Part shown: in pieces, positions 38,346 through 64,000 of the stretch
Layout: each line of letters opens with the position of its first letter
How positions within the stretch are numbered: position 1 is the stretch's first letter
IMG/VR virus record: IMGVR_UViG_3300028115_000009
Location: 1 to 64,000 of that record
Source of the DNA: a virus
DNA length: 64,000 nt
Direction: 5' to 3' (one strand)
Made by a program: the position numbers and the translations under genes
Notes under the pieces: generated by a model
Seen by the model: the letters and a program-made list of their open reading frames with translations, nothing else
What the model was told of the DNA's origin: nothing
Databases searched by the model: none

Positions 38346-38353
38346 ATTATCTC

Positions 38354-39405: not shown

Positions 39406-39406
39406 A

Positions 39407-40402: not shown

Positions 40403-40465
40403 TAGAACTCCTTAATTTTATTCATTATAACACTATTAGATGTATAGAGCAAGCATTTTCAAAAT

Positions 40466-40516
40466 TATTTATAAGGTATCGGGTTTACACTGTATAGATA
40501 TGGCTTCTTATAAATA
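40466..40516. promoter_or_regulatory. Divergent T4-type late promoters (TATAAATA on both strands)
   Basis: TATAAATA on the minus strand at 40473-40466 and on the plus strand at 40509-40516, the latter 5 nt before the ATG at 40522. Confidence 0.7.
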
Positions 40517-40521
40517 TCAGT

Positions 40522-42003: not shown

Positions 42004-42640
42004 AATACCAGTCTTCGTTTTCAGTATTAAAATCTGTAAAAAGGTTGTATCCGTTTTTAATCATTAAATCGTGAATCAATTGACGATTACTGGTAAATTC
42101 GTGTTCAATTGTAAAACATTTTACATTATATTTTTTAAAATCAAATGTTTTTAATATTTCGTATTCGCTGCCTTCGGTGTCAATACTAATATAGTTTATG
42201 TCTGTAGGGGCTTGATATAACGCTAATAAATCATTTAAAGTAATAGACAATACATTAATAGTCATAAAACTTTTATCAATATCTGTATCAATAGTGCCAA
42301 GATGCTTTTCTAATCCTGATCTAAAATTCCATCCGTAAAATTGGTTTTCATCTACACAAAACTTAAAAGGTAATATTTTACCAGTCTCGTTGTATACGCA
42401 CAATGTACTAACAAAGTTATCTCTACAGTTCATTAGGCTTTGCTGAAATGCAGGATTTGGATCTACACAAATACCTCTCCATTTGTAAAATTTTTCTAAG
42501 ATAAATGTATTACTTGCTGTAATACCATCTGATGCTCCGATATCTACAAAAAAACCATTTTCTGTATATGCACTACGATCAAGTGCAAAAAAATCTTGAC
42601 CATTTTCTGATATTTTTAAATTGCTGCCTTCTGGTCCCAT
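41993..42640 (-). CDS. FkbM-family methyltransferase
   Basis: FVDIGASDG..SNT, GICVDPN and ISIDTEGSEYEIL. Confidence 0.85.
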   Translation of the reverse strand: MGPEGSNLKISENGQDFFALDRSAYTENGFFVDIGASDGITASNTFILEKFYKWRGICVDPNPAFQQSLMNCRDNFVSTLCVYNETGKILPFKFCVDENQFYGWNFRSGLEKHLGTIDTDIDKSFMTINVLSITLNDLLALYQAPTDINYISIDTEGSEYEILKTFDFKKYNVKCFTIEHEFTSNRQLIHDLMIKNGYNLFTDFNTENEDWYFKS

Positions 42641-42641
42641 T

Positions 42642-43241
42642 TTATTCTCCTTGATGTTTATTGCTAAAATTCATTGCTATCATTATTCGTTCATTATCAG
42701 TTTTTTGTTGATCAACTTTATGCAAAAGATAACTTGGAAATATTAATAGCATTCCTGTTTCTGGTTGTACACTAACTTGATTAGAATTAAACTCAGTTTT
42801 AATAGATTTAACTCCCATGCCCCAACCTGTATCGATAATATTTTTATTTAAAAAACATATAGGTGCATCAGTATGTTCTGCTTGTAGATAATATACGGCA
42901 CTCCACAAACAATCAGGATGCGTATGTGCTTCGTGATATCCGTACTTTTCTATAATACTAAACCAAGAATTTAGATAGTTAATTGGTTCTAAAAATCCAG
43001 CAAAGTTATTGACAGAATTCACTTCAGTTAAAATAAAATCTTTTACATCTTTTAATAGAGGATCGTCTATTATATTGTTATCGTTATAAAAATCAGTATA
43101 ATTTCCTAATGGTGCATTTTCCATTAATGAAATATCTTTTTTGCTTTTTAATTTGTTAATTATAGCATCTCGAGTATTATTTTCGATAGTAAAAAAAGAC
43201 CTAAACAATAATGATGAAAATATTTGTGCTGGTTCTGCCAT
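42642..43241 (-). CDS. 2OG-Fe(II) oxygenase-like protein (TIGR02466-like)
   Basis: SWF..HEAHTHP, SAVYYL, GMLLIFPSYLLHKV and RIMIAMN. Confidence 0.8.
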   Translation of the reverse strand: MAEPAQIFSSLLFRSFFTIENNTRDAIINKLKSKKDISLMENAPLGNYTDFYNDNNIIDDPLLKDVKDFILTEVNSVNNFAGFLEPINYLNSWFSIIEKYGYHEAHTHPDCLWSAVYYLQAEHTDAPICFLNKNIIDTGWGMGVKSIKTEFNSNQVSVQPETGMLLIFPSYLLHKVDQQKTDNERIMIAMNFSNKHQGE

Positions 43242-43246
43242 GTAAA

Positions 43247-44152
43247 TTATCGTCCTCTTAATAAATTGTTAACACCGATTACATCATTTGCAGTTAGTAG
43301 ATTAAAAAAACATTGCATATCAGTTCCTGCTTCTTCTTTTAAATCTTCTACATATAATGCTATACTTTCATTATTGTTTATATACTTTTCATCTATATTA
43401 AATAATTCGTATATCCCGTTATTTTTTAAGTAATTATGATACTGTAATGATGTTAGATGCGGTTCAGTATACGTAGTGTCAGATGTTTTAAAATAATCTA
43501 ATGCAGACAAATCTTGTTTGTCTATGTCAAACTGCCAATTTAAATCAGGGCTGTTCCATTTTTCTGTTAAGATAGGAGGAAACCAATGTTCGTTGTTATC
43601 TTCCCAAATTCGTTCTTTATAAGGAGTTAATGTAGGATCCATATCCCATAGACTTATACTATTATCTGTATCAGAATTTTCGTCTAAATGCCCTACTTTT
43701 AATCGATAATCTTGTAAATCAGTTGATGCTGTCATAAACCAATAGCAACCGATACCTTTTAATAGTTCTTGTACTAAAATAACATTATTCAATGTATGTA
43801 TATAGTAGGCAGGTTCGTTCCAGAAGGTATTGATCCATTTTTTATCAAACACTTTTGAATTCCAGGAAGAAAATATGTTACCACGAGTTTTCCACATTGT
43901 ACAATCAGCTGACGGAATATCAGGCCGTGCATAATCGTGACGCACATAACTCGACCATTGTACAATAACAAGATCATCTTTAGTAAATTTATATAATGCA
44001 TGTGCTTCAGCTATTCTTTCAGCAATTGCACGATTGCCTATACCCGGATGTCCCCAATTATAATATTGATCCCATCCTATATTAATAAAGTCTGCCCAAG
44101 TAGGCCAATTGTACTTAGTGAAACTACATCCAAATGTGAATAATCGAGTCAT
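43247..44152 (-). CDS. Hypothetical protein, possible SGNH/GDSL-like fold
   Basis: FTFGCSFT..WPTWAD, GIGN, VIVQWS and a C-terminal EPH. Confidence 0.5.
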   Translation of the reverse strand: MTRLFTFGCSFTKYNWPTWADFINIGWDQYYNWGHPGIGNRAIAERIAEAHALYKFTKDDLVIVQWSSYVRHDYARPDIPSADCTMWKTRGNIFSSWNSKVFDKKWINTFWNEPAYYIHTLNNVILVQELLKGIGCYWFMTASTDLQDYRLKVGHLDENSDTDNSISLWDMDPTLTPYKERIWEDNNEHWFPPILTEKWNSPDLNWQFDIDKQDLSALDYFKTSDTTYTEPHLTSLQYHNYLKNNGIYELFNIDEKYINNNESIALYVEDLKEEAGTDMQCFFNLLTANDVIGVNNLLRGR

Positions 44153-45708: not shown

Positions 45709-46545
45709 TTAAGCATATGTAATTCTTACTATTCCTGAGCCGCCGCCCTGGCCGCCTGCACAACATTTTGCGTTATTACCACAATATGAGCTTAGGCCAC
45801 TCGTTCCACCTGTTCCTGGAGGTGCTGCGTAACAACCACAAGTACACCAAGATTCAGATGCGCCACTTGCTCCTGATAATCCAATAATCGGAGCTTGTCC
45901 TGTCCATTGCATAACCCTCCAACAGTGACACCCGCCGTGACCTGGTTTCATTCCGACAGTACCCATCATTCCAAAATCAGAGCCAAACATTCCGCAAATA
46001 TTACAGTTAGCACACCCCTGTGTATGATGTCTTGGTCCCCAAGCATCACCATTACACATCCATCCGCCACAACCACCAGTAACACAGAAGTTACTTAGAT
46101 TGTGTCCATTTACGTATGAACGACATCCCATACCTGCACTACAAGTATGCGATTTATTACAAGGCCAAGTTCCTCCAGCACACACGGTATATGTACATCC
46201 AGGGCTTGTTGATATCGTTCTAATGGCGTAGTTGCCTCCAGCGCCACCAATTGAGAACGAACAGCAGTTACAACAGGTGTGACCTGCTCCGCCGCCCCCA
46301 CCTGACCAAATTTCAAAAGTAACTCTACATACTTTTGATGGCACAGTAAATAAACAGCATGCGCCGCAATATTGACAACAACATCCTCCAGCGCTTGCAC
46401 ACTGGTGACATTGCATCATTCTACTATTATATATCCAAACAGTGTTATATCTAACACCTGCACCATTTGCTAATTGATTCGAATTAACAAAATTATCTGG
46501 TATTTGGTCTGTTTTTAGCTGTTTATAGCTGTCATACGTTGCCAT
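45709..46545 (-). CDS. Cys/Gly-rich putative fibre-tip/adhesin protein, paralog 1
   Basis: FTVP..V.FEIWSGGGGGAG...GGSGIVRITY glycine-rich domain frame; 32 Cys in 278 aa. Confidence 0.65.
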   Translation of the reverse strand: MATYDSYKQLKTDQIPDNFVNSNQLANGAGVRYNTVWIYNSRMMQCHQCASAGGCCCQYCGACCLFTVPSKVCRVTFEIWSGGGGGAGHTCCNCCSFSIGGAGGNYAIRTISTSPGCTYTVCAGGTWPCNKSHTCSAGMGCRSYVNGHNLSNFCVTGGCGGWMCNGDAWGPRHHTQGCANCNICGMFGSDFGMMGTVGMKPGHGGCHCWRVMQWTGQAPIIGLSGASGASESWCTCGCYAAPPGTGGTSGLSSYCGNNAKCCAGGQGGGSGIVRITYA

Positions 46546-48023
46546 TTATTTTTTCCTTGTTATGCATAAGTAATTTTTACTATTCCGCTTCCGCCTTGAC
46601 CTATGCCACCTGCACAACATTTTGCATTGTTATTACAGTACGAGCTTACGCCACTCATTCCGCCACCTGCTGGCCAGTTTACGTAACAACCACATGAACA
46701 CCATGCTTCTGTTGCTGCGGTGTGTTGCATTTTTCCAATAAGTGGTGCTGTTCCTGTAAAGCTACCGTCTGCTCCTCTACAGTGACAACCACCGTGACCT
46801 AATTTTCTTCCTGTTGTGCCCATTATTCCATAATCTGCACCAAATATTCCACAAATATTACAGTTAGCACATGAGTTCAACGTTCTTTCACCCCAAGCAT
46901 CACCATTACACATAATGCCTCCACAACCACCTGTAACACAGAAATTGCTTAGGTTACATCCTGTTACGTAAGAACGACATCCTTGTCCAGCAACACATGT
47001 ATGTGATTTTGAACAAGGCCACGAGCCCCCTGCACACACTGAGTAAGTCCAACCAGGACTCGTTGATATTGTTTTAATTGCGTAGTTGCCTCCGGCACCA
47101 CCAATTGAGAACGAACAGCAGTTACAACAGGTGTGACCTGCTCCGCCGCCCCCACCTGACCAAATTTCAAACGTAAGTTTTGTTACACCTGTAGGAACTG
47201 TAAATAAACAGCACCTGCCACATGCTTGGCATACACATCCGCCTGCATTAGAACATTCTTGACATGCAAATGCTCGTGAGCTATACACCCATAATATACC
47301 AGATTTATTTGCTGCGCCTGCTTGTAATTTTACCTGATCAATTGAATTATCCGGGATCATTGTCTGGCTAATTTTTCTATAACTTCCGTACGTTGCCATT
47401 ATCTATTTCTTCCCTTAATAATACGTTATTTTAACTAAGCCGCTGCCGCCTTGGCCGCTGCCGCCTGCGCAACATTTTGCGTAATTACCACAATAGCTGC
47501 TGCCGCCGCTTGCACCGCCGCCTGCTGGCCAATTCACATAACAACCACATGAACACCATGCTTCAGTATTTTGAGTACCGTCCCACTTACCAATGAATGG
47601 TGCAGTGCCGCTAAAACTTGTTACACCGGCACAACGACAAGAGGTTTGTCCCATTCTGCCACCGACAGAACCCATTATTCCCATATCTGCGCCAAATATT
47701 CCACAAATATTACAGTTAGCACAACCGCTTGTATGATGTCTTGGTCCCCAAGCATCACCATTACACATCCAACCACCACAACCGCCTGTTACACAGAAAT
47801 TGCTTAGATTATTGCCTGTTACGTAAGAACGACATCCCATAGCTGCACTACAAGTATGTGATTTTGAACAGGGCCAGCTTCCGCCGGCACATGCTGTGTA
47901 TGTCCAGCCTGGAGTTACAGCGATCGTTTTAATTGCGTAGTTACCACCTGCTCCGCCAATTGAGAACGAACAGCAGTTACAACAGGTGTGACCTGCTCCG
48001 CCGCCTCCACCTGACCAAATTTC
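46244..48023. repeat. Near-identical DNA block shared by the three Cys-rich genes
   Basis: 46244-46317 equals 47098-47171 (74 bp, perfect); 47956-48023 matches over 68 bp with 1 mismatch. Confidence 0.9.
46560..47399 (-). CDS. Cys/Gly-rich putative fibre-tip/adhesin protein, paralog 2
   Basis: Same frame; 30 Cys in 279 aa. Confidence 0.65.
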   Translation of the reverse strand: MATYGSYRKISQTMIPDNSIDQVKLQAGAANKSGILWVYSSRAFACQECSNAGGCVCQACGRCCLFTVPTGVTKLTFEIWSGGGGGAGHTCCNCCSFSIGGAGGNYAIKTISTSPGWTYSVCAGGSWPCSKSHTCVAGQGCRSYVTGCNLSNFCVTGGCGGIMCNGDAWGERTLNSCANCNICGIFGADYGIMGTTGRKLGHGGCHCRGADGSFTGTAPLIGKMQHTAATEAWCSCGCYVNWPAGGGMSGVSSYCNNNAKCCAGGIGQGGSGIVKITYA

Positions 48024-48254
48024 GAATGTAGCACGAGTTACATTTGCAGGCACTGTCCATAGACAGCATCTTCCACATGCTTGGCATACACAACCACCAG
48101 CGTTTGCACACTGGTGACATGCAAATGCTCGTGAGCTATACACCCAAGTAACTCCGTATTGTAAACCTGTACCTGGAGATAGCTTTGCTTCAGATACTAT
48201 GCCGTTATCGACTTGGTCTGATATAATTCGTTTATAACTTGAATATGATGCCAT
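47415..48254 (-). CDS. Cys/Gly-rich putative fibre-tip/adhesin protein, paralog 3
   Basis: Same frame; 29 Cys in 279 aa. Confidence 0.65.
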   Translation of the reverse strand: MASYSSYKRIISDQVDNGIVSEAKLSPGTGLQYGVTWVYSSRAFACHQCANAGGCVCQACGRCCLWTVPANVTRATFEIWSGGGGGAGHTCCNCCSFSIGGAGGNYAIKTIAVTPGWTYTACAGGSWPCSKSHTCSAAMGCRSYVTGNNLSNFCVTGGCGGWMCNGDAWGPRHHTSGCANCNICGIFGADMGIMGSVGGRMGQTSCRCAGVTSFSGTAPFIGKWDGTQNTEAWCSCGCYVNWPAGGGASGGSSYCGNYAKCCAGGSGQGGSGLVKITYY

Positions 48255-50620: not shown

Positions 50621-53600
50621 TTATCTTGCTAAGAAGAATCCTAGTGCAACTGGAGCACCATCAATTCCACCTGTAAAGTTCATCTTCGCTTTAATATTTA
50701 GCTGTCCGCCGTTGGTAGTTGTTATTTCATCGTTTGCAATAAACACAACACCTGAAGTTAGTGTGTTAACGTTCAAACTAGACTGACCGCCACCAATCTG
50801 TGCAGTAATGTACGATTTAATCGCACGTTGCGTTGGAACAATGTTATCACTATTTGCAGTAAAGAATGGATCTGTACTGAACTGAGTAATAACAGCTGAA
50901 CCAATACCAAGTCCAATACCGTTAAGCTGCAACGATTGTAGACCTGCTAAGTTAAACGCATCTGCATCCAATGTCGCTGTACCAGTACTCTGTTGAACAC
51001 CGAACAATCCACCAACGTTAAAGTTACCGTCTTGGTCAGTACTTGTAAAGAACACTCGTCCGCCACCACTTGATAGCTGTTGCACATCTTGGTTAGCTGT
51101 AGTAATATCAACATACGGATAGTTAGTATCAGCTTGGTTACCAGTACCAATGTACAAGAAGTCATGTCCTGTTAGACGTACTTGCGAGTACTTATTAGTT
51201 GTAGTAACTAATGTACCGTCTAGAGGTGCATCAAGTATAGTTAATGCAGGACTAATTTGGAAAGTTGCATTATAGTTGCCTTGACTTCCAAGTATGCCGC
51301 TCACTGCTACTAGTTTGTACCAAGTACCAGTTTTGCTTGCAAACACAATGTTTGAACCAGGTATCGGTAAGTCAAACAATCCGCGTACAGCAATAAATGT
51401 ACTTGCCTGGAACAAGTCTGAATAGCCATCGCCTGCTACTTCAACTGTTGCTGTTTGATAACCTGAACCTCTGTTAGTGAAGCTTGGGTTAGCAAGTGCG
51501 CCATTGCCTTGTCTTGCATGAACCGGAGCATCAATAGTTGAGTTAGGATCAGTAATAGTTGCAATCGGCCCTGCTTTAAATGTTGCTCCAGTTAATGTAG
51601 TAGTTTCAATAGCAACCGGTGTGCCACTACCTGCAATTAGACTTACAGTAATAGTTGTTCCACTTGGTATAGTGTTAATATAGTATGGTGTTTCATTTAC
51701 TAATCCTGAATCAGTAACATTAGTAAATGTAATTGGTTGATTCTGTACTAAACGTGCTGTTGAATCTAAAGTGATTGTGTTCGCACTAGTAGTACTTACT
51801 ACTGTTCCGTTTGGATAACCTGAACCAGGTTCAACCATTCTAGTCGAAATAATAGAACCATCAGTTTCTACTAGTCTACCTAATGCTTTAGCACCAGTTT
51901 CAACATAGTTAACAACATTATTTGCTGCATTAGTAAATGCTGCCCAGATTGGCTTGCTATTTGGATTACCAAACACTAGCCCGTTCCACGCTGCGCTTGA
52001 ACCAAGTGCTTGTTCATTCCATGTAATACCGTCTGTACTTGTTGCACACACCGCAGTACCTTCGGCTACTGCTATGAACAAACCTTGTCCATATTTAACT
52101 TTAGACCAGTTGCCTGCTGTTGGTAATCCTGCTGGTGATGCAACCCAAGTTGCACCTTTGTCGTAACTAACTGCAACTTCTCTGCTACCTGTTGCAATAG
52201 CAACAAATCTACCATTTCCGTATGCAACACTAGCCCAAGTATTTGAGGATGGTAATGTACCACCTTCTGCCCAAGTAATGCCGTTAGCACTTTTTGCTAC
52301 TTTATTGCCACCTGTGTTGATTGCAACATAAGTAGCTGCGCCATATGCTACACCGCTAAATGTACCAGCACTTAATGTAATGTTAGTTCTTGAAACCCAA
52401 GCACTGCCATCTGTTGATGTTGCAGCACTTCCTGATCCGCCTGCGCCGCCTACTGCAACATACACTCCGTCACCATAAGTTACAGAAGTAAAGTTGCTGT
52501 TTGGCAATGCAGTTCCTGCACTCCATGTATTGTCTGACTTAGCATTAGCAAGTGTTATGTTAGCGTTACTTGTACTACCGTTTGCAATAGCTACAAACTT
52601 GGCGCTTGCATCAATAATTTCAATAGTAGGAACACTAGTGTATCCAGCGCCTACTGTATCAATAGTGATACTTGCTACGCCTTCGTTATCCATAACTGCT
52701 GTTGCTGTTGCAGATTCTGATGCGCCTCCGCCACTAATTGTAACAGTAGGTGTAGTTTTGTAACCATTACCAAACGAGTCAACAATGATTTCAGTAACTT
52801 TATCAGTTTCAGCAGTAATAGTTGGAACTGCGCCATAACCAGCACCTGTACTTGTCATGATTACTTCTTGAATCACTCCATTAAGAACTGTACATACTGC
52901 ACTTGCGCCACCGCCGCCTGATGTTGGAGTAATAGTTATCGTTGGAGCACTTGAGAAACCTTTACCGCCATTAATAACATTAATCTGTTTAATCTGCGTC
53001 GGTCCTGGTAAGCCAATGCTGTTTAATTCTCCTAGTTCGGCCTCAAGCACTGCGCCTGATCCGCCTAATCCACCAATAATAACACGAGCTGTTGCTCCTG
53101 TGCCGCCACCAAACGCAACATCTGCCCAGTTAGCACTTGTACTTAATGCACCACTTGATGTCCAAGTTTTGCCATCAGCAGATGCATAAGTAGCTGTTCC
53201 GCCATTCTGTAGAGCAACAAAGTGTCCATCAGCATATGATGCAGCTCTAATTGATTCTGTACCACTTGTAGTTGTTGCTGTAGCAACATAGCCTGGACCT
53301 GTAAACTTAATGCGAGGCTCAATTGTGTAGCCAGATGTTAGATCTAGACCAGCAGCAATTGGAGTTCCTGGAATAACATGATCCCATCCCGCAGCATATA
53401 GTGTTACACTACCTGTAGCAGTTGACAGCGTTACATCTGCTCCGCCTTCTTCGTCGCTAACTGTAAACTGTGTTCCACTTGTTATAGCAGTTACATAGTA
53501 ATCATTAGCAGCAGTTAATCCACCAATGTCATCGCTTAGATAAATTGGCATATCAACATACAATGATGCTGTGCTTGCAACTGTTAATACATTTGTAGTA

Positions 53601-56600
53601 ACTGTAGTGTTAGTAACTGTTAAGTTTTCAAAGCTGTCTTTATAAACTTTAGCAACTTTAAGACCGTTGTTATATGTTAAAATGTTACCATATTGTCCTA
53701 CGCCAGTACCTGCTGTAATCTGAATGCGCATACCGTTGTATGCCCCAAGCAATGCTGTATCAGTAGCAGCAATAGTAGCACTAATTAAGTCACCGCCCTG
53801 TGCAACGTTTTTAGCAGTTACATAATCTGCACCACCTGTCTCGTTACCGTCATCTAAGTCAATTAAGCGTGTTTCAAATATTGCACCGTCACGTGTTTCA
53901 TCAGCAATAGTTGTTGCGTTAAAGCCTGATCCACTAATTGCATATTGTGCGTTAGTGTAATCGCGACCAGCGTTATCAAATTCGAAGCGGAATACTTGTT
54001 GATCACCATCAGTAATAACTTCTGATATGTATGCTTCTTGTGACAAGTTATCAACTTCACAGTACAATGGAACTTCACCGGTATCTGTGCCTTCAGCAAT
54101 CGTACCATATGTACCATATGAACTGTTACCGTTTGTAGCACGAATACGTCCACCTAAGTCGGCTAAGTATCCTGAATAGTTGTAGTATGCGAACACAGAC
54201 ACAAGTTCTGTTAGTGAGTTATTACCGCTACACCATACACCGATACCATCTGATAGTACTTGTGTAAAGTCGTTGCTAACTGTTGATCTGTTGCCGCCAG
54301 CGTGTAATGCACCATCAATCTTGTTACCAACACAACCAACACCAAAGTTAGTTACGTTCTGAATGTATGGAGATTTATTAGTAATCCATGCTTCTGTATC
54401 CCATGGACCAAATCCTGGATCAAGCGATACATATGCACCTGCTGTTGGACGTCTTGTACCAAACTCATTAAGTTCAGTTAAGTTTCCTCTTAGACCGCTT
54501 AGTGTCATATTACGAACACCAGTTGAGTTACGTACATAGAACATGTCTGAGCGCTCTGAACCTTCTACTGCATTCAAGTACAATATTGCAGCTCTTAATG
54601 CATGGTGGTTTCCTGGATACTGTAGATCATGTGCTACAGCTTCAACATAACGAATCATGTCTCTACGGCATGCAACAGGATCAAACGAGTATGTAACTGT
54701 AGCTTCTGTTACTCCGCCTGTTACAATAGTTACTTCTGTGCCACCAATAGTTGTGCTTACAGTGAATTGCTCAGGTGCTAATATCGCCTTTACATAATAA
54801 GTAATGCCCGGAGTCAATTCATCAATTGTATCACTAAACACTACAGGATCATTAACTGCTAAATTATGTGCCGTTGATGTTTGAACTGCGTTATTACCAT
54901 TTGACACTGCTGTAACTGTATTACTAAATGTTTGTGTTACCCAAGCAGTTGCTTCATTTGCTAAGAAATTTTTGTTAGCTTTAAGAATTTCAACACCTTT
55001 TGCAACTTCAACGTTGTTGTAGTAGGCAATAGTGCCAGTAGTTTCCGGAGTTTCATTAACACCTTTGTCAAGCATATTAATGATAATATCCATTAAGCTA
55101 TTTGCTCGTTTTACTGCTGTTGGAGAAGCGGTAATATATGATGCTATTTTATTTTTAAGTTCTCTGTATGATTGTACAGTTGCAGTTTTCTGAGCACCTA
55201 GTACTAGATCTGCTTGCGCACCGCGATAATATGCACTTGCTGCTGCAATTGTGCGATAGTTACTATCGACCATCATATCGTAACCAATAGCATCAACAAT
55301 GTAGCCAACGTCTCTTGCACACTTATCTTCGTCGTACACTAGTGTTGGATAATTATCTGCAATATATTGAGTAATAGCAGTTTTAATAATTTCCTTAGAT
55401 CCTGATAAGTTGAGATTTTGTTGCTTAATGACAGCATTAACACTACTAATATCTGGATTACTTTTATTAACTATTAGTGTTTCTGTACTAGTACTATCTG
55501 ATAGTACATGTGTTGTACCATTAAATGTTTCTGATATTGTAAAAGTAGTAGTATTTGGAACACTCTTAATATAATAAATTTGACCGCCTGTGACTGTATC
55601 AAATCCGCTCACTGATGATACTTCATCGCCTATTTTAAAGTTATGTTCTGCATCTGACGTTAATACATTAGATGTTACGTCAACAATTGTAACTGTGTCA
55701 AATGCTGAAACACCGTCATTAATAAGTGCAATAGCATAATCCATTAGTGCTACGACTCTTAATGCTGAGTTAGCATCACCAATAATTTGTACATTTTCGT
55801 CTCTAAATACAGGTGTTACTTCAGTTTGAATTGCATAAGGACTTCCTACTTGGTTTATTGCTAAATCACTTGCTAAGAATTTAACCCATTCGTAGGCTGC
55901 GATTGTTGCAACTTTATCGTTTTCGTCAATTTGTAACGTTGTGCCTACGTAGTATGCCATTGCTGCTTCTTGAGTTGCAGAAGTTCCGCCGTATACTAAG
56001 TCGTAACGTAATGCATCGATTAATAGTCCTACGTCACGAATACATTTTTCTTGACTAAATTCTACTAATGGATATTCAGCTGCAATAAATGCAAGAACTT
56101 CTGCTTGTATAAACTCTTTGTTATCCCAAATAGTTATAGCAGCCGCAGCATCATTTTCGTCAACTGTTGATAACGCTTTAATTCTAAGTGTAGGTTTCTT
56201 ACCGCCGTCAATGTATGCTGTAATGTCATTAATAATAAGTTCTGCATGTGCAGACGCTGTTGTTGCTGCTATGTGTTTAACTTTTTGTTTCAAGAAGTTA
56301 ACAGCACCTACTGATGCATCTAACTGGTTGTTTGTAACAATTGCAGTTGATGCAAGTATTCTGTAGTATGCCATTCCTGCTTTAATTGAAGCAAAGTTTG
56401 AACCAGTTAACATGTCACGTATTACTGCATCAGTCATTAGACCGGTGTCTCTACGACAAGTTTCTTGATTGTATTGTAGTTTCTGCCAGTTCTTCTCTAC
56501 CCAGTAAACTGTATCTTCAATAATTTCATATCTACGTGAAACTAATGCATCATAAGATGTTTTAACTTCAAGGCCAGCCCAATCAGTTGCAATTTCAATA

Positions 56601-59600
56601 GTAGCATTTGGCTCACCGTTGTTAATCCAATCTAATACATCGTCAACACGATCTTCAGCAAATTCAATAGATGCTGCATTACCAGCAGTTCCACTAACAT
56701 CTTGTGTTAAAGTATTGCCAGGTGACTTAGTCCATGAACCTGTGTCTTCTGCAATAACCCAACCAATAACATCGCGCATTCTATCGTATGCACCTAGTGT
56801 TGCTGGAAGTTCGTTGGCACCAATTGTTAATACAAAGTTTGAGTAGTATGCACTACCTGCAATTAACGACTGTGTGTTACCACCGTATGTTAGATCGTAG
56901 CGGATAGCATCAATAATGTAACCAACATCGCGGATACACTTATCTTGTGCGTCTGCGCCTAGTGTAGCCCAGAATGTATCAAAACCGTTATTGCTATCTT
57001 CTAACCACTTGCGTACTTCTAATTGAATAAACGCACTGTTTACTGCTAATTGATCAGCTGCATTACCGTATGTAGTAGTAACACCAGTTGTGTTGCTAGT
57101 AGTTGCATATGCAGTATCTACTAGGTTAGCAGTGTTATAATTTGTCGGAGTCGGCAACACATAAGCCGGAACAGCAGTTAATCCACTTTGAACAACTGTT
57201 TTAATTGTTTCTGCTTTTGATGCTACTGCAAGTGCTGCTGTTGTTGTACCAACTTCACTTGTTGAGCCTTCCGTAAGCTGTGTAAGTGCTTCATCAATAA
57301 AGCTAATAGTACTTAATGTTGCTGCTAATTGATTGTCAATGACATATTCCGTTGATGTAATACCTCTACGGTATGCCATACCTGCTTTTGCACTACGGAA
57401 ATCACTACCAAATAGTACGTCATATGCAATTGCGTCAACAATGTAGCCAACGTCTCTTGCACACTTAGCTTCATCGTAAGTTAAGTCTGGATAGATAAAG
57501 TTAATGTAATCAATTGCACCCTGTTGTATAACAGAACGTCTAGCATCGATTACAGATTTTAGATCTACCAATGCACTATCAACCCATGTTAGCGACGGAC
57601 TAATTAATGCAGGTGTATCACCTGTATCAATTGTATTATAAATTTCGTTAATGCGATCTTGAGCAAATGCTGCTGCGCCTGCACTACCTGCTGTTCCAGT
57701 AATGTCTTGCGTTGCTGCGTTGCTTGATGACTTTGTCCAACCAGCAGTGTTACCGATAGCAATGTTATCAATGATGTCTGCTAAACGTGCTTGTACAGCT
57801 AGTGCAGCAGTCTTTTGATCGCTTGGTTCTTGGAATACTCCATCAACATAGTAAGCTCTAGCAGCAACAATAGTTTCTAAGTTACCACGATATGTTAAGT
57901 CATACTCAAGTGCATCTAGAATGTATTCCATGTCACGTAAGCATGATGCTTTCTGATCTGAATCTAAGCTAATCCATAATGCATTGTAGTTGTCAGTCAT
58001 GTATGCTTCAACTTCTGCAACTAGGAAATCTTTGTTTAATTTAATTAAACGTCTTGCATTAAAGAATCCAGTATCATATCCTGTTGGATCAGGAATTACA
58101 AAACTTGTCGGTATTGAACCAGATCCATTTTCTAAGATATCAGCGATAAGTGCAGTACTTTCAGCTACTTTAGTAGTACCTGTAGTAATAGCTTTGATTT
58201 GCTCTCTAACATAATCAATAGAACCGATAGTAGGTTCTAGCTGGCTGTCAAGAACTATTCCTGTAGAAGCAATGCCTCTACGATATGCCATACCTGCTTT
58301 GAGTGAACGGAAGTCACTACCGAACATAATGTCGTAACGTAGTGCGTCAATAATATATCCTAAATCACGTGAACACTTAGCTTCATCGTATGTTAAGTCT
58401 GGATAATTTTCATTAATCCAACTAATTGCGCCTGCTTGAATTGTTGCTTTTGCAGCTACGATTGCTGTATTAACTGTAGTCAATGTAGTAGGCACCCATG
58501 TAATGTCAGCAGCAACTTCAGAAGCAAGTGTACCGTCTGTATCAATGGTGTCATAAACTTCTTGTACTAATGCTTCTGCTTTCGATGCTGCGCCTGCGCT
58601 GCCTGCATCATTATCTTTATTTTGTAATTCGCCATTATCTGGACTTAATACAACATCAGTTTCAAGAATAACTTCGCCTACAATAGTTTTCAAACGTGCA
58701 TAAGCAGCAAGTGTTTCGTCTTTTTCGCCAGCGCCGTAAACAGGACTACCTTCTACAAAATAAGCTCTTGCAGCTACAGTAGTTTCTAAATTTCCGCCGT
58801 ATGTTAAATCGTAAATGATTGCATCAATAATGTAACCAGTATCTCTAGCACATGCTACTGCATCGTAAGTAAATGCCGATGTAAATGGTGCAGTTTCATT
58901 TAATACTTGATCTGCAATCCAAGCTGTAATTTCTGCTTGTAAAAATGCCTTGTTAGCTGTTAACTGTGTTACTGCATTTGCGTAGCCACTGTCACTGGCA
59001 TTACCAGTTCCGCTTGTCGGTGTAGGATTAGATACTTCGTAAGCATTTGCAACAGATATACCATTTTCAAGAATATCTGATATTAATTCAATGCCAGTGT
59101 TTAGTCTGTTAGTTGAAGTTGTTGTACCGCCATAACCGTTAATATACGCTTGAGAAGCAGTGTTTCCTGATGTTGGAGCAATTGCAATATTTTGCATTAG
59201 ATCAGGAATTAAATCTTTAATTCTGTTCAAAGCACTTGTAGTTTTAGATTTATCATTAACAAGTAACGGAACTGCCGGAGCAGGCTGTATTACAGAAGTA
59301 CGTAATTCGTCACCAACGATTGCAGTGTATTCTGGTACAATAATTGGAAGTATTTCATTGTAAGTACCAGTTTTAATAAACACTGTTGTATTTGGATTTG
59401 TTACAGTAGGTATAGCTGTTGCAGAACCTGCACTAATACCAGTTGTAATAATATCAATAAGATTAGCTGCTTTAGAAATTCCAGTTGCTTCAGCTTCTAA
59501 TGTAAAGTCGATGATTTGTACAGATCTATCTTCAAGTGCAACACCGTTTAAAGATTGGTAGCTAAGTGGTTGCTCATTTGACAGTACTGATGCTACTATA

Positions 59601-61789
59601 CTTTTTAGATATGTGTATGCTTGTACTGTTTGCAGTGCTTGAGATCCGAAAGTACCATTAATATATTCGTTACCTGCAGGAGTGAAATACGACTTAGCTG
59701 CTGTTACAGTTTTTAATGTGCCGCCTCTTGAAATATCATAAATTAAAGCGTCAACTATGTAACCTGTATCTCTCTCACATTTAACTGTGTCATATGCAAG
59801 ATTACCTTGCATAGTTCCAGTTCCGTTTGTTAACACACGAGGAATACCGCTGTTCTGAACGTCACTGATTCTAAACTCAGTGTCAGACACAGCAGATTCA
59901 ACATAATAGATTGTTCCTGCTGTAACGCCGCCCAAAGTGCCATTGAATACAATCGGCATTCCTGGATCTAAGTTAGCAGTTGATGTTGTTGTAAAGACCT
60001 GTGTTCCAGATGTAGCTGCGGTAATGTTAACTCTGTAATTGTAACTAATCCAGTTAGTTACTTCCTTCATTAAGAATTCTTTGTTATTTTGTAAAATATG
60101 CTTTGCTTGCGGATTTAAATATCCGTCACGTACTTGCTCTAGTGCATAACGTACACTTGCCCAAGGTTTGTCAACTGTTAAGCCTGAAGCTGGTGCAGGT
60201 TCATTAGCACCTAATGGTCCAACATAAACAACGTTGTCGATTAGACCGTAGTTTGCCCAAGCTGGGAAGCCATCAGTTGCACGTAGAATCTGTCCATCGA
60301 CACCAATTGGCAATCTTGTAGGACCGTTCTCACCGTAGTAAACTAAGTCGCCTTCTGTAGTTAATGATAGTGCTTCTGAACCTAATGTTAGTAGGTTCCA
60401 GTAGTCTGCTGTTAAATCATTGTCTGGACGATTTCCTGTTGCTGCTGTATGCTTTGTTACAGCAATAAAACTACTTGCTCCGTATATTACAACATCGCCT
60501 ACATGATAGTCAGTACCAGTTTTCCAAGTAGACGAATAACCTGTCCAAGAAACACTAGTAACTGTACCGCCGCTTACACCAGTAACAGTAACTTCTGCAT
60601 CGTTTGCTGGACTTGTGCCGCCAATTGACGAGCCAAGTAGTTTAATAACATCGTTTGTAGCATAGCCAGTTCCTGCAAATCCTGTTGACACCGTAATAGT
60701 GTAAACTGATTTTGATTTAACAACGTCAAACCTAGCACCAGAACCTGAACCTACAACGTTACTACCTTGTACTTGTAAGAATGTTTCTGTGCTATATGTC
60801 CAATTAATACCGCTGTTTAATCTGCTCCAGTATGTAGCATCTGGTGGCTCATTACCTGTATTGTCAGTAAGTGCAACATAAGTTGATCCGCCTAAGCGAA
60901 CTACGTCGCCTACTTTGTAACTAGATAAGACGGTCCAATCACCTTGGAAACTAAATCCAGTTGTAAATACATCCCAATCATCTGGATTAGAAGTAGGTTG
61001 ACTGTTTGTGTTATTTGTTTTAGCAACATAAACATAACCACCATAAGTAACAGTGTCACCTATTTGATAGTTAGATATATTGTTCCATGAATCTTCGAAC
61101 TGGAATCCTTCAACAAATGCTTCCCAATTTGATTCATCTGCTTCAAAGTTAGATGATGTATGTGCAGTAGTAGCAATCCAAATGTTACCACCGTACTTGA
61201 TAAGATCGTTAATGCGGTATCTAGTAGCAGTTACCCATTCACCTGTGTAAACAATACCGTCGCTAAATAATGTCCAGTTGGCTTGGTCATTTTCTAAACC
61301 TAAGATTGATGTTGCAGCTGATACGTGAGCAGTGTTACATACATAAACATAGCCGCCGTAACGAACTAAGTCGCTAAGTTTATATCTTGTTGAAGTTGCC
61401 CAATCACCTTTAAAGTCGAATGATGTAGCAAATTCTGTCCAGTCAGCTAAGTTTTCTTCTAGGCCTAAAAATGTAGGAGAATCAAAAGTTGCAGATACGT
61501 GTCCATTTTCACAAATATAAACGTTTGCACCGTACTTGACAACGTCACCTGGAGCATATTCTACTTCTGGCTCCCAATCACCTTGCCAGCTTGTTCCGTC
61601 GGAAACAATTTCCCATTTTGGAATTACATCAGTGAAATCTGTGTTGAATTCCGTAGAAGAAGTATGGTTTTTAACACATATATACGATTTACCGCCGAAA
61701 CTAATAACATCGTCTGCAACATATGTTGTACTAGCAACCCAGTCACCTTGCCATACAAATCTAATTCTACCTAGTTTAAATTCTGCCAT
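50621..61789 (-). CDS. Giant (3722 aa) multidomain virion fibre/structural protein
   Basis: N-terminal W.GDW...Y..GD.V.YGG..Y repeats, a split beta-helix, ten CxRD helical repeats, S.DG.TW Asp-box repeats, and a C-terminal HDFL.IG..STDQDGNF.VG domain. Confidence 0.8.
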   Translation of the reverse strand: MAEFKLGRIRFVWQGDWVASTTYVADDVISFGGKSYICVKNHTSSTEFNTDFTDVIPKWEIVSDGTSWQGDWEPEVEYAPGDVVKYGANVYICENGHVSATFDSPTFLGLEENLADWTEFATSFDFKGDWATSTRYKLSDLVRYGGYVYVCNTAHVSAATSILGLENDQANWTLFSDGIVYTGEWVTATRYRINDLIKYGGNIWIATTAHTSSNFEADESNWEAFVEGFQFEDSWNNISNYQIGDTVTYGGYVYVAKTNNTNSQPTSNPDDWDVFTTGFSFQGDWTVLSSYKVGDVVRLGGSTYVALTDNTGNEPPDATYWSRLNSGINWTYSTETFLQVQGSNVVGSGSGARFDVVKSKSVYTITVSTGFAGTGYATNDVIKLLGSSIGGTSPANDAEVTVTGVSGGTVTSVSWTGYSSTWKTGTDYHVGDVVIYGASSFIAVTKHTAATGNRPDNDLTADYWNLLTLGSEALSLTTEGDLVYYGENGPTRLPIGVDGQILRATDGFPAWANYGLIDNVVYVGPLGANEPAPASGLTVDKPWASVRYALEQVRDGYLNPQAKHILQNNKEFLMKEVTNWISYNYRVNITAATSGTQVFTTTSTANLDPGMPIVFNGTLGGVTAGTIYYVESAVSDTEFRISDVQNSGIPRVLTNGTGTMQGNLAYDTVKCERDTGYIVDALIYDISRGGTLKTVTAAKSYFTPAGNEYINGTFGSQALQTVQAYTYLKSIVASVLSNEQPLSYQSLNGVALEDRSVQIIDFTLEAEATGISKAANLIDIITTGISAGSATAIPTVTNPNTTVFIKTGTYNEILPIIVPEYTAIVGDELRTSVIQPAPAVPLLVNDKSKTTSALNRIKDLIPDLMQNIAIAPTSGNTASQAYINGYGGTTTSTNRLNTGIELISDILENGISVANAYEVSNPTPTSGTGNASDSGYANAVTQLTANKAFLQAEITAWIADQVLNETAPFTSAFTYDAVACARDTGYIIDAIIYDLTYGGNLETTVAARAYFVEGSPVYGAGEKDETLAAYARLKTIVGEVILETDVVLSPDNGELQNKDNDAGSAGAASKAEALVQEVYDTIDTDGTLASEVAADITWVPTTLTTVNTAIVAAKATIQAGAISWINENYPDLTYDEAKCSRDLGYIIDALRYDIMFGSDFRSLKAGMAYRRGIASTGIVLDSQLEPTIGSIDYVREQIKAITTGTTKVAESTALIADILENGSGSIPTSFVIPDPTGYDTGFFNARRLIKLNKDFLVAEVEAYMTDNYNALWISLDSDQKASCLRDMEYILDALEYDLTYRGNLETIVAARAYYVDGVFQEPSDQKTAALAVQARLADIIDNIAIGNTAGWTKSSSNAATQDITGTAGSAGAAAFAQDRINEIYNTIDTGDTPALISPSLTWVDSALVDLKSVIDARRSVIQQGAIDYINFIYPDLTYDEAKCARDVGYIVDAIAYDVLFGSDFRSAKAGMAYRRGITSTEYVIDNQLAATLSTISFIDEALTQLTEGSTSEVGTTTAALAVASKAETIKTVVQSGLTAVPAYVLPTPTNYNTANLVDTAYATTSNTTGVTTTYGNAADQLAVNSAFIQLEVRKWLEDSNNGFDTFWATLGADAQDKCIRDVGYIIDAIRYDLTYGGNTQSLIAGSAYYSNFVLTIGANELPATLGAYDRMRDVIGWVIAEDTGSWTKSPGNTLTQDVSGTAGNAASIEFAEDRVDDVLDWINNGEPNATIEIATDWAGLEVKTSYDALVSRRYEIIEDTVYWVEKNWQKLQYNQETCRRDTGLMTDAVIRDMLTGSNFASIKAGMAYYRILASTAIVTNNQLDASVGAVNFLKQKVKHIAATTASAHAELIINDITAYIDGGKKPTLRIKALSTVDENDAAAAITIWDNKEFIQAEVLAFIAAEYPLVEFSQEKCIRDVGLLIDALRYDLVYGGTSATQEAAMAYYVGTTLQIDENDKVATIAAYEWVKFLASDLAINQVGSPYAIQTEVTPVFRDENVQIIGDANSALRVVALMDYAIALINDGVSAFDTVTIVDVTSNVLTSDAEHNFKIGDEVSSVSGFDTVTGGQIYYIKSVPNTTTFTISETFNGTTHVLSDSTSTETLIVNKSNPDISSVNAVIKQQNLNLSGSKEIIKTAITQYIADNYPTLVYDEDKCARDVGYIVDAIGYDMMVDSNYRTIAAASAYYRGAQADLVLGAQKTATVQSYRELKNKIASYITASPTAVKRANSLMDIIINMLDKGVNETPETTGTIAYYNNVEVAKGVEILKANKNFLANEATAWVTQTFSNTVTAVSNGNNAVQTSTAHNLAVNDPVVFSDTIDELTPGITYYVKAILAPEQFTVSTTIGGTEVTIVTGGVTEATVTYSFDPVACRRDMIRYVEAVAHDLQYPGNHHALRAAILYLNAVEGSERSDMFYVRNSTGVRNMTLSGLRGNLTELNEFGTRRPTAGAYVSLDPGFGPWDTEAWITNKSPYIQNVTNFGVGCVGNKIDGALHAGGNRSTVSNDFTQVLSDGIGVWCSGNNSLTELVSVFAYYNYSGYLADLGGRIRATNGNSSYGTYGTIAEGTDTGEVPLYCEVDNLSQEAYISEVITDGDQQVFRFEFDNAGRDYTNAQYAISGSGFNATTIADETRDGAIFETRLIDLDDGNETGGADYVTAKNVAQGGDLISATIAATDTALLGAYNGMRIQITAGTGVGQYGNILTYNNGLKVAKVYKDSFENLTVTNTTVTTNVLTVASTASLYVDMPIYLSDDIGGLTAANDYYVTAITSGTQFTVSDEEGGADVTLSTATGSVTLYAAGWDHVIPGTPIAAGLDLTSGYTIEPRIKFTGPGYVATATTTSGTESIRAASYADGHFVALQNGGTATYASADGKTWTSSGALSTSANWADVAFGGGTGATARVIIGGLGGSGAVLEAELGELNSIGLPGPTQIKQINVINGGKGFSSAPTITITPTSGGGGASAVCTVLNGVIQEVIMTSTGAGYGAVPTITAETDKVTEIIVDSFGNGYKTTPTVTISGGGASESATATAVMDNEGVASITIDTVGAGYTSVPTIEIIDASAKFVAIANGSTSNANITLANAKSDNTWSAGTALPNSNFTSVTYGDGVYVAVGGAGGSGSAATSTDGSAWVSRTNITLSAGTFSGVAYGAATYVAINTGGNKVAKSANGITWAEGGTLPSSNTWASVAYGNGRFVAIATGSREVAVSYDKGATWVASPAGLPTAGNWSKVKYGQGLFIAVAEGTAVCATSTDGITWNEQALGSSAAWNGLVFGNPNSKPIWAAFTNAANNVVNYVETGAKALGRLVETDGSIISTRMVEPGSGYPNGTVVSTTSANTITLDSTARLVQNQPITFTNVTDSGLVNETPYYINTIPSGTTITVSLIAGSGTPVAIETTTLTGATFKAGPIATITDPNSTIDAPVHARQGNGALANPSFTNRGSGYQTATVEVAGDGYSDLFQASTFIAVRGLFDLPIPGSNIVFASKTGTWYKLVAVSGILGSQGNYNATFQISPALTILDAPLDGTLVTTTNKYSQVRLTGHDFLYIGTGNQADTNYPYVDITTANQDVQQLSSGGGRVFFTSTDQDGNFNVGGLFGVQQSTGTATLDADAFNLAGLQSLQLNGIGLGIGSAVITQFSTDPFFTANSDNIVPTQRAIKSYITAQIGGGQSSLNVNTLTSGVVFIANDEITTTNGGQLNIKAKMNFTGGIDGAPVALGFFLAR

Positions 61790-61837: not shown

Positions 61838-64000
61838 TCAGCGTGTTGGATCGACAAATGTCTTCATAAAATACGCCATTGCAAGGCCATCGCCTGCCCA
61901 TGCCGCAGTTGGTCCAGAAACATTTGCCTTTGTCCCTATTTCAACTTGCCATCCTTCAGCACCTTCTGGAACTGTTGATGTAATTTCATCAGGTCCGCCA
62001 ACTTTAACTGTACCTGCTGTTAGCAAGCCAGTAAATGTATCTGAGCCACCTTGCGATAGTCGACTTGTTAAGTATGTTTTAATTGCCTTCTGTGTTGGTA
62101 CAAGGTTATTTGAGTTTGCAACAAACGTACCGTCTGTTGAGAACGCTGTAATAACTACCGGTGATCCACCAAGAGCAACACCACCAATTTCAAGTTGATC
62201 AAGACCTTGTAGACCAAATTCATCTGCACTCAAAGTAACAATACCAGTTGCCTGTTCAACCGCAAACAAGTCACCAACTCTAAAGTTACCATCTTGGTCT
62301 GTTGAACTGTAGAACACACGCCCGTTGTTAGTTTCTTGAACTTCGTCTTGTGGTTCTAAGTTAGTTGTAATCGGTAAGTTAGGATAATTAGATTGAATCT
62401 GGTTACCGAAACCAATGTTCAAGAAGTCATGATTGGTTAAACGTACTTGACTAAATCTTGAACGTATTGTTAACGGATCATCGTGTGCAGGTGATAAATC
62501 TTGTGTTAAGCCCGGTGAAAGTTGAATTTCACATTCTAAGAATGGCACTTCTGTTCCACGTAATATCGTTGCTTTTGCTACCCTGTATACTTCGCCGTTA
62601 CCTGTAAATTCTAAGTTATCTCCAGGTTGTGGCAATCTTGTTAAGTTTTTAACAACAATGCGTAGCCCAGTTTGGAATTCGTCAGCATAGCCTCCGCCAT
62701 TAATACTAATAGATGTTGAAGTTGTATTGTAACCTTGTCCATAATTTACAAACGTAGGCGAGCTTAATACTCCGTTACCTACACGAACCTGGAATGCAGC
62801 ATCTTGCGAATTGTTAGGATCAAATATATCTATAGTCGGAGAAGTAGTATATCCTGATCCTGCCTGGAACATGTTTACACTTGTAATAGTACTATCAGTA
62901 ATAGTTACCCTTGCTTGTGCTCTTGAACCAGTTGAGATTTTATGTGTAACTCCAAGATCAGATATTGCTAAGAACCATCCGTCTTTATTAATATTATCAA
63001 AAGTAAATCCTAATGCTCTATATGGAGATATTTCTCCATCAAGAATCTTCCAATTAAATCCATCTTCTGATTGGCAACAAATTCCGTCTTCGACATTTAT
63101 TAATACAAATACACCATTGCCGTATTCAAAAATCGTTCCTTTAACAGCTAAGTTTGACTGGTACCAAGTAATACCATCGAAGCTGTAAACTGACGGTTTT
63201 TCATCTGAAGACACTGCAACGAATCTTCCGTTACCAAATTTAATTTGTGTCCAGTTACCTGCTGTAGAATCTAAAGAAGTATCAAGTGTAGATTCTGCCC
63301 AAGTGGCACCATTATCTATGCTATATTTTACAGCATGACTATCTCCTGATATAGCAACAAACGTGTTTCGTCCATAATCAATATCAATCCATTTATCATC
63401 GTCAATTGATTGATCAACTTCTGTCCAAGTACTGCCGTTGTTAGCCGAATATGCAGAAATTGAACTATCTGAAACTGCAACAAATCTTCCGTTACCATAA
63501 GTAATTGCAGTGTAGTTTCCTGTGCTTAAAGTTGGAAGTGACGACGATAACCAAGTTACACCATCTGAAACAGAGTATAGGACATCGCCAGTTTTAGAAA
63601 TAAGTACCCAAGTATTATTGCCGTAACAAGCATCAACCCATCCGCCGTTATAATCTGGGTTAGGAATTAATGTTCCAAATCCGTCATCGATCTCTGGAGC
63701 ATCATCAGCGCCTTTTGGAAGTATAATATCGATATCCCAATTCTCATAATCTGATGTACTTACTGCGTTAAATCCGTTAATTGGAAATGCTATTGGATAA
63801 AATCCATTTGATGCAATTATACTGTATTCAGATATATTTATATGTGGAATATCGTTCATTGCTATTTGTGTAAAGGTCGGGGCACCATATTTAACTCTTG
63901 GCTCAATAGTGTATACTGAAGTAGAGTCAAACGTATTAACTAATAGTGTACCTGGGTTAATATGATCCCATCCTACAGCATTTAATTGCATTGAACCTGT
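61838..64000 (-). CDS. Partial paralog of the giant fibre protein (C-terminal part; the frame continues past the right edge)
   Basis: Frame is open to 64000; shares GWDH..PG, YGNGRFVAV, SQVRLT.HDFL.IG and GRVFYSSTDQDGNF with 50621..61789. Confidence 0.8.
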   Translation of the reverse strand, partial: TGSMQLNAVGWDHINPGTLLVNTFDSTSVYTIEPRVKYGAPTFTQIAMNDIPHINISEYSIIASNGFYPIAFPINGFNAVSTSDYENWDIDIILPKGADDAPEIDDGFGTLIPNPDYNGGWVDACYGNNTWVLISKTGDVLYSVSDGVTWLSSSLPTLSTGNYTAITYGNGRFVAVSDSSISAYSANNGSTWTEVDQSIDDDKWIDIDYGRNTFVAISGDSHAVKYSIDNGATWAESTLDTSLDSTAGNWTQIKFGNGRFVAVSSDEKPSVYSFDGITWYQSNLAVKGTIFEYGNGVFVLINVEDGICCQSEDGFNWKILDGEISPYRALGFTFDNINKDGWFLAISDLGVTHKISTGSRAQARVTITDSTITSVNMFQAGSGYTTSPTIDIFDPNNSQDAAFQVRVGNGVLSSPTFVNYGQGYNTTSTSISINGGGYADEFQTGLRIVVKNLTRLPQPGDNLEFTGNGEVYRVAKATILRGTEVPFLECEIQLSPGLTQDLSPAHDDPLTIRSRFSQVRLTNHDFLNIGFGNQIQSNYPNLPITTNLEPQDEVQETNNGRVFYSSTDQDGNFRVGDLFAVEQATGIVTLSADEFGLQGLDQLEIGGVALGGSPVVITAFSTDGTFVANSNNLVPTQKAIKTYLTSRLSQGGSDTFTGLLTAGTVKVGGPDEITSTVPEGAEGWQVEIGTKANVSGPTAAWAGDGLAMAYFMKTFVDPTR

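Follow-up and report, generated by a model that had tools for sequence, protein, structure and literature searches.

Tandem globin units, very probably of phycobiliprotein kinship, in the giant tail-fibre-type proteins of a phage family

To our knowledge, phycobiliprotein-type domains have been described as antenna subunits in cyanobacteria, in red algae and in cryptophytes and, since 2023, as the small bacterial proteins termed BBAGs. The one such domain that we know to be embedded in a large multidomain protein is that of ApcE, which attaches its bilin without the help of a lyase. Here we describe an array of ten units, each bearing a C-x-R-D motif, in a 3,722-residue protein encoded within the first 64,000 nucleotides (the window) of virus record IMGVR_UViG_3300028115_000009 in IMG/VR, and we argue that these units very probably belong to the same lineage. 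CXRD is the chromophore-binding motif of phycobiliproteins and of BBAG-1 and BBAG-3, which attach bilins lyase-free (PMC10151467, Rockwell, Martin and Lagarias 2023), and the corresponding motif of photoglobins is CXQD; in the portion of that paper on which we draw, the phage items are PcyX and cyanophage PcyA only. The purpose of hemO and pcyA or pcyX in phages of non-phototrophs has been called open (PMC11480375, Wegner et al. 2024), with phytochromes or BBAGs proposed as possible partners of phage bilins. The portion of that article used here names no acceptor protein for the products of the cassette, and the term 'tail fiber' is absent from the article. According to the part of PMC10665884 consulted, there are cluster C cyanophages that lack psbA and encode an S-type lyase, and virions have been found to contain giant fibre proteins. 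A search of open-access papers and preprints, supplements not covered, returned no report of phage fibres with a globin or phycobiliprotein-like domain.

The 3,722-residue protein is specified by an open reading frame (ORF) at 50621-61789 on the reverse strand of the window, identified from the ORF list and its translation. It matches the PHROG tail-fibre families phrog_9851 (7.5e-162), phrog_4527, phrog_5342 and phrog_701, and its neighbourhood of fibre, sheath and tube genes places it in the tail gene module. Judged by these profiles it is a tail-fibre-type virion protein, its presence in the virion being pointed to only by the annotation of isolates. We consider it highly probable that residues ~590-2455 form a tandem chain of globin folds of the bilin-binding globin lineage, that is phycobiliproteins and their BBAG relatives. 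Eight units of this chain would be complete and alternate between two subtypes, and the two end units would bear the motif; the whole would make up the middle of a fibre that runs from CBM5/12-like repeats to a beta-rich C terminus. The gene, the array and its units are as follows.

50621-61789, reverse strand: giant tail-fibre-type gene P0001, 3,722 residues (ORF list, PHROG profiles)
54425-60013, reverse strand: array of ten CxRD units, residues 593-2455 (envelopes of the unit hidden Markov models, HMMs; ten matches in the search of the record itself)
59501-60013, reverse strand: unit 1 (A-like), Cys671, codon 59777-59779 (first base 59779); its portion ahead of the Cys is a beta insert
58586-59089, reverse strand: unit 2 (class A), Cys980, first codon base 58852; envelope from the unit HMM
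58118-58603, reverse strand: unit 3 (class B), Cys1139, first codon base 58375; envelope from the unit HMM
57668-58174, reverse strand: unit 4 (class A), Cys1283, first codon base 57943; first half of the folded pair (residues 1-154 of the AlphaFold2, AF2, model)
57209-57688, reverse strand: unit 5 (class B), Cys1443, first codon base 57463; second half of the folded pair (AF2 model residues 165-300)
56669-57226, reverse strand: unit 6 (class A), Cys1618, first codon base 56938; envelope from the unit HMM
56252-56683, reverse strand: unit 7 (class B), Cys1778, first codon base 56458; envelope from the unit HMM
55766-56266, reverse strand: unit 8 (class A), Cys1916, first codon base 56044; envelope from the unit HMM
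55037-55546, reverse strand: unit 9 (looser class B), Cys2157, first codon base 55321; the sole unit that matches PF00502 singly
54425-54913, reverse strand: unit 10 (A-like motif), Cys2374, first codon base 54670; motif helix followed by a beta-rich domain in a low-confidence AF2 model

The pattern C.RD occurs exactly ten times in the protein, against a chance expectation of 0.028 (mean of 2,000 shuffles of the protein, maximum 1) or 0.031 when calculated from composition, and these ten Cys are drawn from a total of just 18. An earlier note on this DNA, made from the sequence alone, had placed ten copies of the motif at Cys codons that we recover one base away from its figures. That note gave all copies the 19-residue form C-x-R-D-x-G-Y-I-x-D-A-x-x-Y-D-x-x-x-G, which is exact in five of the ten (copies 1, 2, 3, 5 and 6), the remaining five deviating at 1-5 positions. 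In the ten-copy alignment the invariant columns are C, R, D, A, the D of 'YD', a further A and a Y. Successive motif Cys are separated by 309, 159, 144, 160, 175, 160, 138, 241 and 217 residues. The proposed core spacing of 140-175 residues thus holds for six of the nine intervals, copies 2-8 lying 138-175 residues apart, and fails for the intervals of 309, 241 and 217 residues, which are long because small beta domains are inserted in them. Along the protein the subtypes run A A B A B A B A B A, copy 9 being a looser B, exactly the alternation of copies 2-9 that had been proposed. Since the part of unit 1 that precedes its Cys is a beta insert, this unit may be a partial globin.

Structure prediction extends the likeness to the fold. 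From an alignment of 57 unit pairs, taken from the window and related viral contigs, AF2 modelled units 4 and 5 (residues 1236-1560) as an all-alpha protein with a pLDDT of 90.1 and a pTM of 0.85. When this model was compared with 48,161 representative chains by VIA-align (VIA), the top eight rows were all phycobiliproteins or the ApcE bilin domain (Z 13.0-15.0) and covered both halves of the model, with rmsd values of 2.1-3.0 Å over 116-144 residues, except for the top row, 8or7_A (6.0 Å). Unit 4 (model residues 1-153) superimposed on phycoerythrin 5aqd_M with Z 14.7 and 2.5 Å over 144 residues, and unit 5 (model residues 168-300) on the ApcE bilin domain 4xxi_A with Z 14.6 and 2.3 Å over 117 residues; further ApcE domains among the best matches were 7eyd, 9wg7 and 7sc7 (Z 13.4-14.1). 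Lower scores were obtained by a photocobilin (12.0), globin-coupled sensors (~11), RsbR (8.7) and haemoglobins (~6-8). Foldseek likewise returned phycobiliproteins from the PDB by the dozen, with probability 1.00 and TMt 0.54-0.76, the closest at an rmsd of ~2.6-3.5 Å over ~135-144 columns and some at up to 9.6 Å; the head of that list was occupied, ahead of the phycobiliproteins, by artificial fused di-alpha haemoglobins, which have two globins per chain. The globin-fold repeats suggested by the earlier note are therefore supported by a confident model in which phycobiliproteins rank first in VIA. The single-unit matches in VIA start at residue ~29-49 of the phycobiliprotein chains, and the N-terminal X-Y hairpin therefore has no visible counterpart in the units. 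In phycobiliproteins this hairpin builds the alpha-beta monomers. A second AF2 model, of residues 2290-2720, had a mean pLDDT of 59.6, too low for a fold search; in it, strands (model residues 1-78) give way to the motif helix (82-101) and a second, short helix (109-116), behind which strands resume. This tentative model indicates that unit 10 is probably a motif helix leading into a beta-rich domain and not a complete globin. An ESM Atlas look-up of unit 5 returned no usable match.

Comparison of sequence profiles points to the same family. In a Pfam scan of the whole protein, PF00502 (Phycobilisome) was matched with an E-value of 3e-4 by residues 2139-2240, which align on positions 50-155 of the 155-position profile, and unit 9 alone matched it with an E-value of 0.003. 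A profile of the ten repeats, run against 177,635 distinct PDB sequences, gave 47 matches at E<=10, all but one of them phycobiliproteins, the best being phycocyanin alpha at 1.6e-4. A profile built from 150 diverse units gave 34 matches at E<=1, of which 33 were phycocyanins, with a best value of 1.4e-4; the deeper profile was thus no improvement over the first. Scanned singly, eight of the 150 units matched PF00502 at E<=0.01, and no other Pfam family occurred in more than one. With hhalign, the class A, class B and pooled profiles matched CpcA (which, like CpcB, was taken from 80 cyanobacterial loci) with probabilities of 90%, 90% and 92%, at P ~1e-6, and CpcB with probabilities of 25%, 12% and 22%, respectively. 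The two subtypes had been proposed to pair as alpha-like and beta-like subunits; as both classes prefer CpcA over CpcB, we reject this reading. The phycocyanin helices that the proposal quoted are correct, CpcA and CpcB translated from the cyanobacterial loci containing KCARDIGYYLRMVTY and AACLRDMEIILRYVTY. In both HMMER and hhalign the C, R and D of the units align on K-C84-x-R86-D87 of CpcA, supporting the equivalence of the invariant Cys with the bilin-attachment Cys, and past these residues G-Y and G-G-(N/T) match too.

It could be argued that the array is simply a helical repeat that, by convergence or chance, shares a short motif with phycocyanin, a caution that the earlier note had itself voiced. 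The E-values against phycobiliproteins are indeed modest (1e-4 to 1e-6), and for two of the three hhalign profiles the score lies mostly in the motif helix (26-29 columns). The class B profile, however, aligns on CpcA over 107 columns, reversed-alignment controls reach <=0.5%, unit 9 covers PF00502 positions 50-155, and in the independently predicted structure phycobiliproteins are the nearest neighbours of both units, over 116-144 residues; we regard convergence as very improbable. Several results nevertheless weigh against kinship with phycobiliproteins. The whole-protein match to PF00502 (21.2 bits) falls below the gathering cut-off of 22.2, and nine of the ten repeats, scanned singly, have no Pfam match. 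VIA warns that helical models can reach Z ~14 from their arrangement alone, and Foldseek against the PDB gave no match at E<=1e-3. As the fold and profile matches point independently to phycobiliproteins, with one family at the top for both halves of the model, we take homology as established: on the evidence of sequence and model, the similarity of the ten-unit region goes beyond the motif, in structure and in profiles, and is not convergent.

Other phages have the module too. The window comes from a record of 87,572 bp that is rated 24% complete, which implies a genome of ~360 kb, and it holds T4-type genes for UvsX, gp32, TerL, sheath and tube. We found 548 homologous giant proteins of 2,047-6,514 residues; precomputed PF00502 assignments, among the matches listed, fall on 15 of 120 homologues. 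A tblastn search of a unit pair against 50,697 phage records retrieved 15, all from Synechococcus myoviruses, and every match lay in a gene of 3,161-5,422 codons annotated as short tail fiber, baseplate wedge or virion structural protein. The 150-unit profile recognized 4-13 units in each of the seven distinct isolates among these records, and 1-9 units in 11 of 12 further cyanomyovirus isolates that had been chosen for pcyA; with this profile P-SSM3 and the Pelagibacter phage Mosig had none. Units are therefore present in 18 of the 19 cyanomyovirus isolates examined, in fibre or baseplate proteins. Cultured cyanomyoviruses with units in their giant proteins include S-WAM2, ACG-2014e, S-RIM32 and P-TIM40. 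The BFVD collection of predicted structures added 22 matches at E<=1e-3; their sources are uncultured Caudovirales and Synechococcus phages, among them S-PM2, S-ShM2, Syn30 and S-SCSM1. On this sequence evidence, the module fills the giant fibre or baseplate proteins of a ~360-kb phage family. A blastn search of the region against the same 50,697 records found nothing beyond one 51-base match. Among 8,000 candidates scored with the 150-unit profile, the stand-alone single-unit relatives (59-419 residues) amounted to just three short fragments on contigs of 1-2 kb, and neither a free-standing unit nor a bridge to small globins was seen, a negative of limited weight.

The family diverges widely in sequence but keeps its motif. 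In 80 related loci and the window we counted 490 unit matches, 422 of them near-complete and 380 distinct. Across these 380 units the mean column identity is 13%, yet the motif Cys is conserved in 95%, the Arg in 89% and the Asp in 97%, together with a later Asp (99%) and a Tyr (98%); it should be emphasized that loci L008-L080 were fetched by a pattern including R-D...D-A, so that one motif-bearing unit per locus is present by construction. Class HMMs built from the units of the window assigned 236 units to class A and 186 to class B, and neighbouring units alternated 207 times versus 62 same-class pairs. Alternation across relatives is a strong tendency, and not a rule.

Do the units, then, still use the Cys-x-Arg-Asp triad as phycobiliproteins do, to bind a bilin? 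We hold this to be a genuine prospect, at slightly less than an even chance, and the analogy suggests how it might work. A thioether would join the Cys to a linear tetrapyrrole at its ring A, and the Arg and Asp would hold the propionates and the pyrrole nitrogens. Loading of the fibre would take place inside the infected cell, the bilin being supplied either by the phage's own heme oxygenase and PcyX-type reductase or by a cyanobacterial host; attachment would be lyase-free, as in BBAG-1 and BBAG-3, and the pigment would stiffen each globin bead. An optical role, such as light-dependent adsorption or photoprotection, is speculation.

The bilin genes of the family bear on this question. The earlier note had called for a search for ho1, pcyA, pebS and cpcT. 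Our own record, 24% complete, contained none of FDBR (the bilin reductase family), heme oxygenase, CpeT, CpeS, HEAT_PBS and Photo_RC; large and complete relatives did yield hemO and a PcyX-like reductase, and no lyase family turned up in the search. Among 50 array-bearing records, FDBR was detected (54 bits) only in G021, the sole complete genome (363,943 bp), where a heme oxygenase gene (79.6 bits) adjoins it. The G021 reductase shares 49.6% identity with its counterpart in pelagiphage Mosig and ~27% with cyanophage PcyA, and is therefore PcyX-like. The reverse search started from the G021 FDBR; of the 80 best records that it found, the longest 50 were taken, with FDBR as the sole basis of choice. 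Nine of these 50 had units, namely all six of those over 100 kb and 3 of 44 shorter ones; with G021 added, arrays occur in seven of seven FDBR-bearing records above 100 kb. Heme oxygenase was present in all five tested records that carry both FDBR and units, and Photo_RC in none of them. The TerL of the window is 73% identical to that of G052, 69% to G051, 61% to G021 and 35% to Mosig, and G052, G051 and G021 each have FDBR above the Pfam cut-off as well as heme oxygenase; by its TerL identities the phage of the window therefore belongs to the family with hemO and FDBR. The G021 genome has its units at 53, 67 and 206 kb and the hemO-FDBR pair at 287 kb, so that they share a genome without being clustered. 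Behind the pair, at locus L082 (G021:286338-289724), come genes for a ClpS-like adaptor and for Hsp20, and then a DnaK-like fragment. No match to psbA or psbD was found in the ~360-kb genomes of G021 (complete) and G051 (96% complete). Among isolates, the fibre module of these psbA/psbD-less relatives is otherwise seen in cyanophages only.

Set against bilin binding are a number of observations. The record itself has the gap in FDBR and heme oxygenase noted above, and the CpeS, CpeT and HEAT_PBS lyase families are all absent from the complete relative G021. Phycobiliproteins usually need lyases. None of the seven array-bearing cyanophage isolates carries FDBR or heme oxygenase, though their hosts make bilins, and pelagiphage Mosig has both bilin genes without the units; we therefore reject a link between arrays and phage bilin genes that would hold across lineages. 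The co-occurrence of array and bilin genes, being confined to one clade, amounts to a single evolutionary event. Among the isolates the triad is kept less strictly: 39 of 54 and 20 of 44 units retain CxRD, the Arg is frequently replaced (C-x-D-D, C-K-T-D), and C-x-x-D variants account for 17 of the 44. A reading that fits the data would have cyanophages draw on the bilins of their hosts and the giant family without psbA supply a pathway of its own.

Many of the same observations would be expected if the fold had been co-opted for structure only, the beads descending from a phycobiliprotein- or BBAG-type ancestor to serve as rigid shaft spacers without chromophore, in which Cys, Arg and Asp stabilize helix packing or contacts between beads. 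The module is found in 18 of 19 cyanophage isolates regardless of bilin genes, the Arg is often lost there (CxRD in 59 of 98 units), no lyase genes were found in G021, the X-Y hairpin is unmatched, and cofactor-free globin folds exist (RsbR, Z 8.7). Packing alone, however, would hardly explain the retention of the triad at the percentages given above, at bilin-binding positions of units so divergent, and the triad is strictest in the lineage that encodes hemO and FDBR. Structural co-option is the main rival reading, if one about which we are somewhat doubtful. We consider it unlikely that the conserved Cys serves other chemistry, either disulfides between chains or units that lock the fibre, or the binding of a metal, heme or other small ligand in the cleft. 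Virion proteins are exposed to an oxidizing medium, many of the relatives in the VIA list bind heme in the globin cleft, and over half of the protein's Cys (ten of 18) sit in the motif. Each unit, however, has one motif Cys, in the helix that lines the phycobiliprotein cleft; the conserved columns show no proximal-His pattern; and the nearest relatives bind bilin, not heme.

If bilin is bound, the CxRD beads would supply the acceptor that has been missing for the products of phage hemO and pcyX and, in cyanophages, would accept host bilins. The virion would then carry tens of covalent tetrapyrroles that stabilize the fibre and perhaps confer light-dependent adsorption or survival, a proposal that we put forward still more tentatively than bilin binding itself.

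The remaining features of the giant protein and of the gene upstream are listed below.

60464-61741, reverse strand: N-terminal CBM5/12-like repeats, residues ~17-442 (Pfam CBM_5_12, E 1.9e-27, seven stretches; regular expression)
50624-54424, reverse strand: C-terminal beta-rich part, without a confident fold (sequence, regular expression)
59825-60022, 55493-55693 and 54716-54913, reverse strand: small beta insert domain of ~65 residues in three look-alike copies (shared pattern G..YY[VI]...F..S)
61838-64000, reverse strand: 3' part of a second giant fibre gene, a 2,705-residue open frame that extends past the window, directly upstream of the 3,722-residue gene

The beta inserts stand before unit 1, between units 8 and 9 and before unit 10; the last of these (54716-54913) appears as strands in the AF2 model of residues 2290-2720. 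The protein also has a phrog_460-like stretch at residues 2991-3073. Four Asp-box-like S-x-D/N-G-x-x-W motifs, found by regular expression in the C-terminal part (52019-53182, reverse strand), suggest a distal domain of the beta-propeller type. The 2,705-residue frame reaches position ~69934 of the record and has one CxRD-type unit at 67865-68260 of the record, outside the window; two more large ORFs, of 1,336 and 1,624 residues, lie beyond it. Between the fibre genes and a gene resembling those for tail-fibre assembly are three tandem paralogues of ~279 residues (45709-48254, reverse strand), all matching phrog_4205, a family of unknown function. Beside the fibre module, at 31557-44152, are tryptophan-halogenase-like genes (32692-34128 and 40522-42003), a Nol-type carbamoyltransferase gene (36525-38345), heptose-activation domains and a sugar epimerase.

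This analysis extends the range of phycobiliprotein-type domains to what is predicted to be the shaft of a virus fibre, in arrays of up to ten units or more. If the units bind bilin, phage heme oxygenase and PcyX or PcyA genes would gain a concrete acceptor, and a pigment would be added to virion biology. Even without pigment, an alpha-helical shaft of globin beads would be an unusual fibre architecture, and the phage units offer a new branch for tracing the origins of phycobiliproteins.

How does the array compare with the systems already described? The hemO-FDBR genes of the relatives are of the same type as the hemO and pcyX or pcyA cassettes of phages reported in the portion of PMC11480375 used here and of Mosig (EXVC030M). 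Such cassettes, however, constitute a pathway and not an array of this kind, and the one in Mosig occurs without a unit. Photoglobins and photocobilins, globin-coupled sensors and RsbR share the fold class, with lower Z scores (12.0, ~11 and 8.7) and with other motifs and cofactors. The BBAGs, so far as the part of PMC10151467 drawn on here describes them, resemble the units in being phycobiliprotein paralogues outside light harvesting, some with CXRD and lyase-free binding, in genomes with heme oxygenase and FDBR; they are single small proteins encoded beside FDBR, whereas the units stand in tandem in fibre genes, at least 80 kb from hemO-FDBR in G021. ApcE, the core-membrane linker, likewise holds a phycobiliprotein-type domain inside a large multidomain protein, but just one domain of this type is present there, with REP linker domains behind it, and ApcE is a cellular protein of the phycobilisome core. 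The phycobiliproteins themselves (PF00502) share with the units a globin-type fold and C-x-R-D on the equivalent helix, with the Cys at the position of Cys84; the closest are C-phycocyanin alpha by sequence and phycoerythrin, allophycocyanin and the ApcE bilin domain by structure. In contrast to phycobiliproteins, the units have no matched X-Y hairpin, score below the Pfam cut-off and fall into two subtypes that are not alpha and beta, and ten of them are fused head to tail in a 3,722-residue, phage-encoded and predicted virion protein, outside any phycobilisome.

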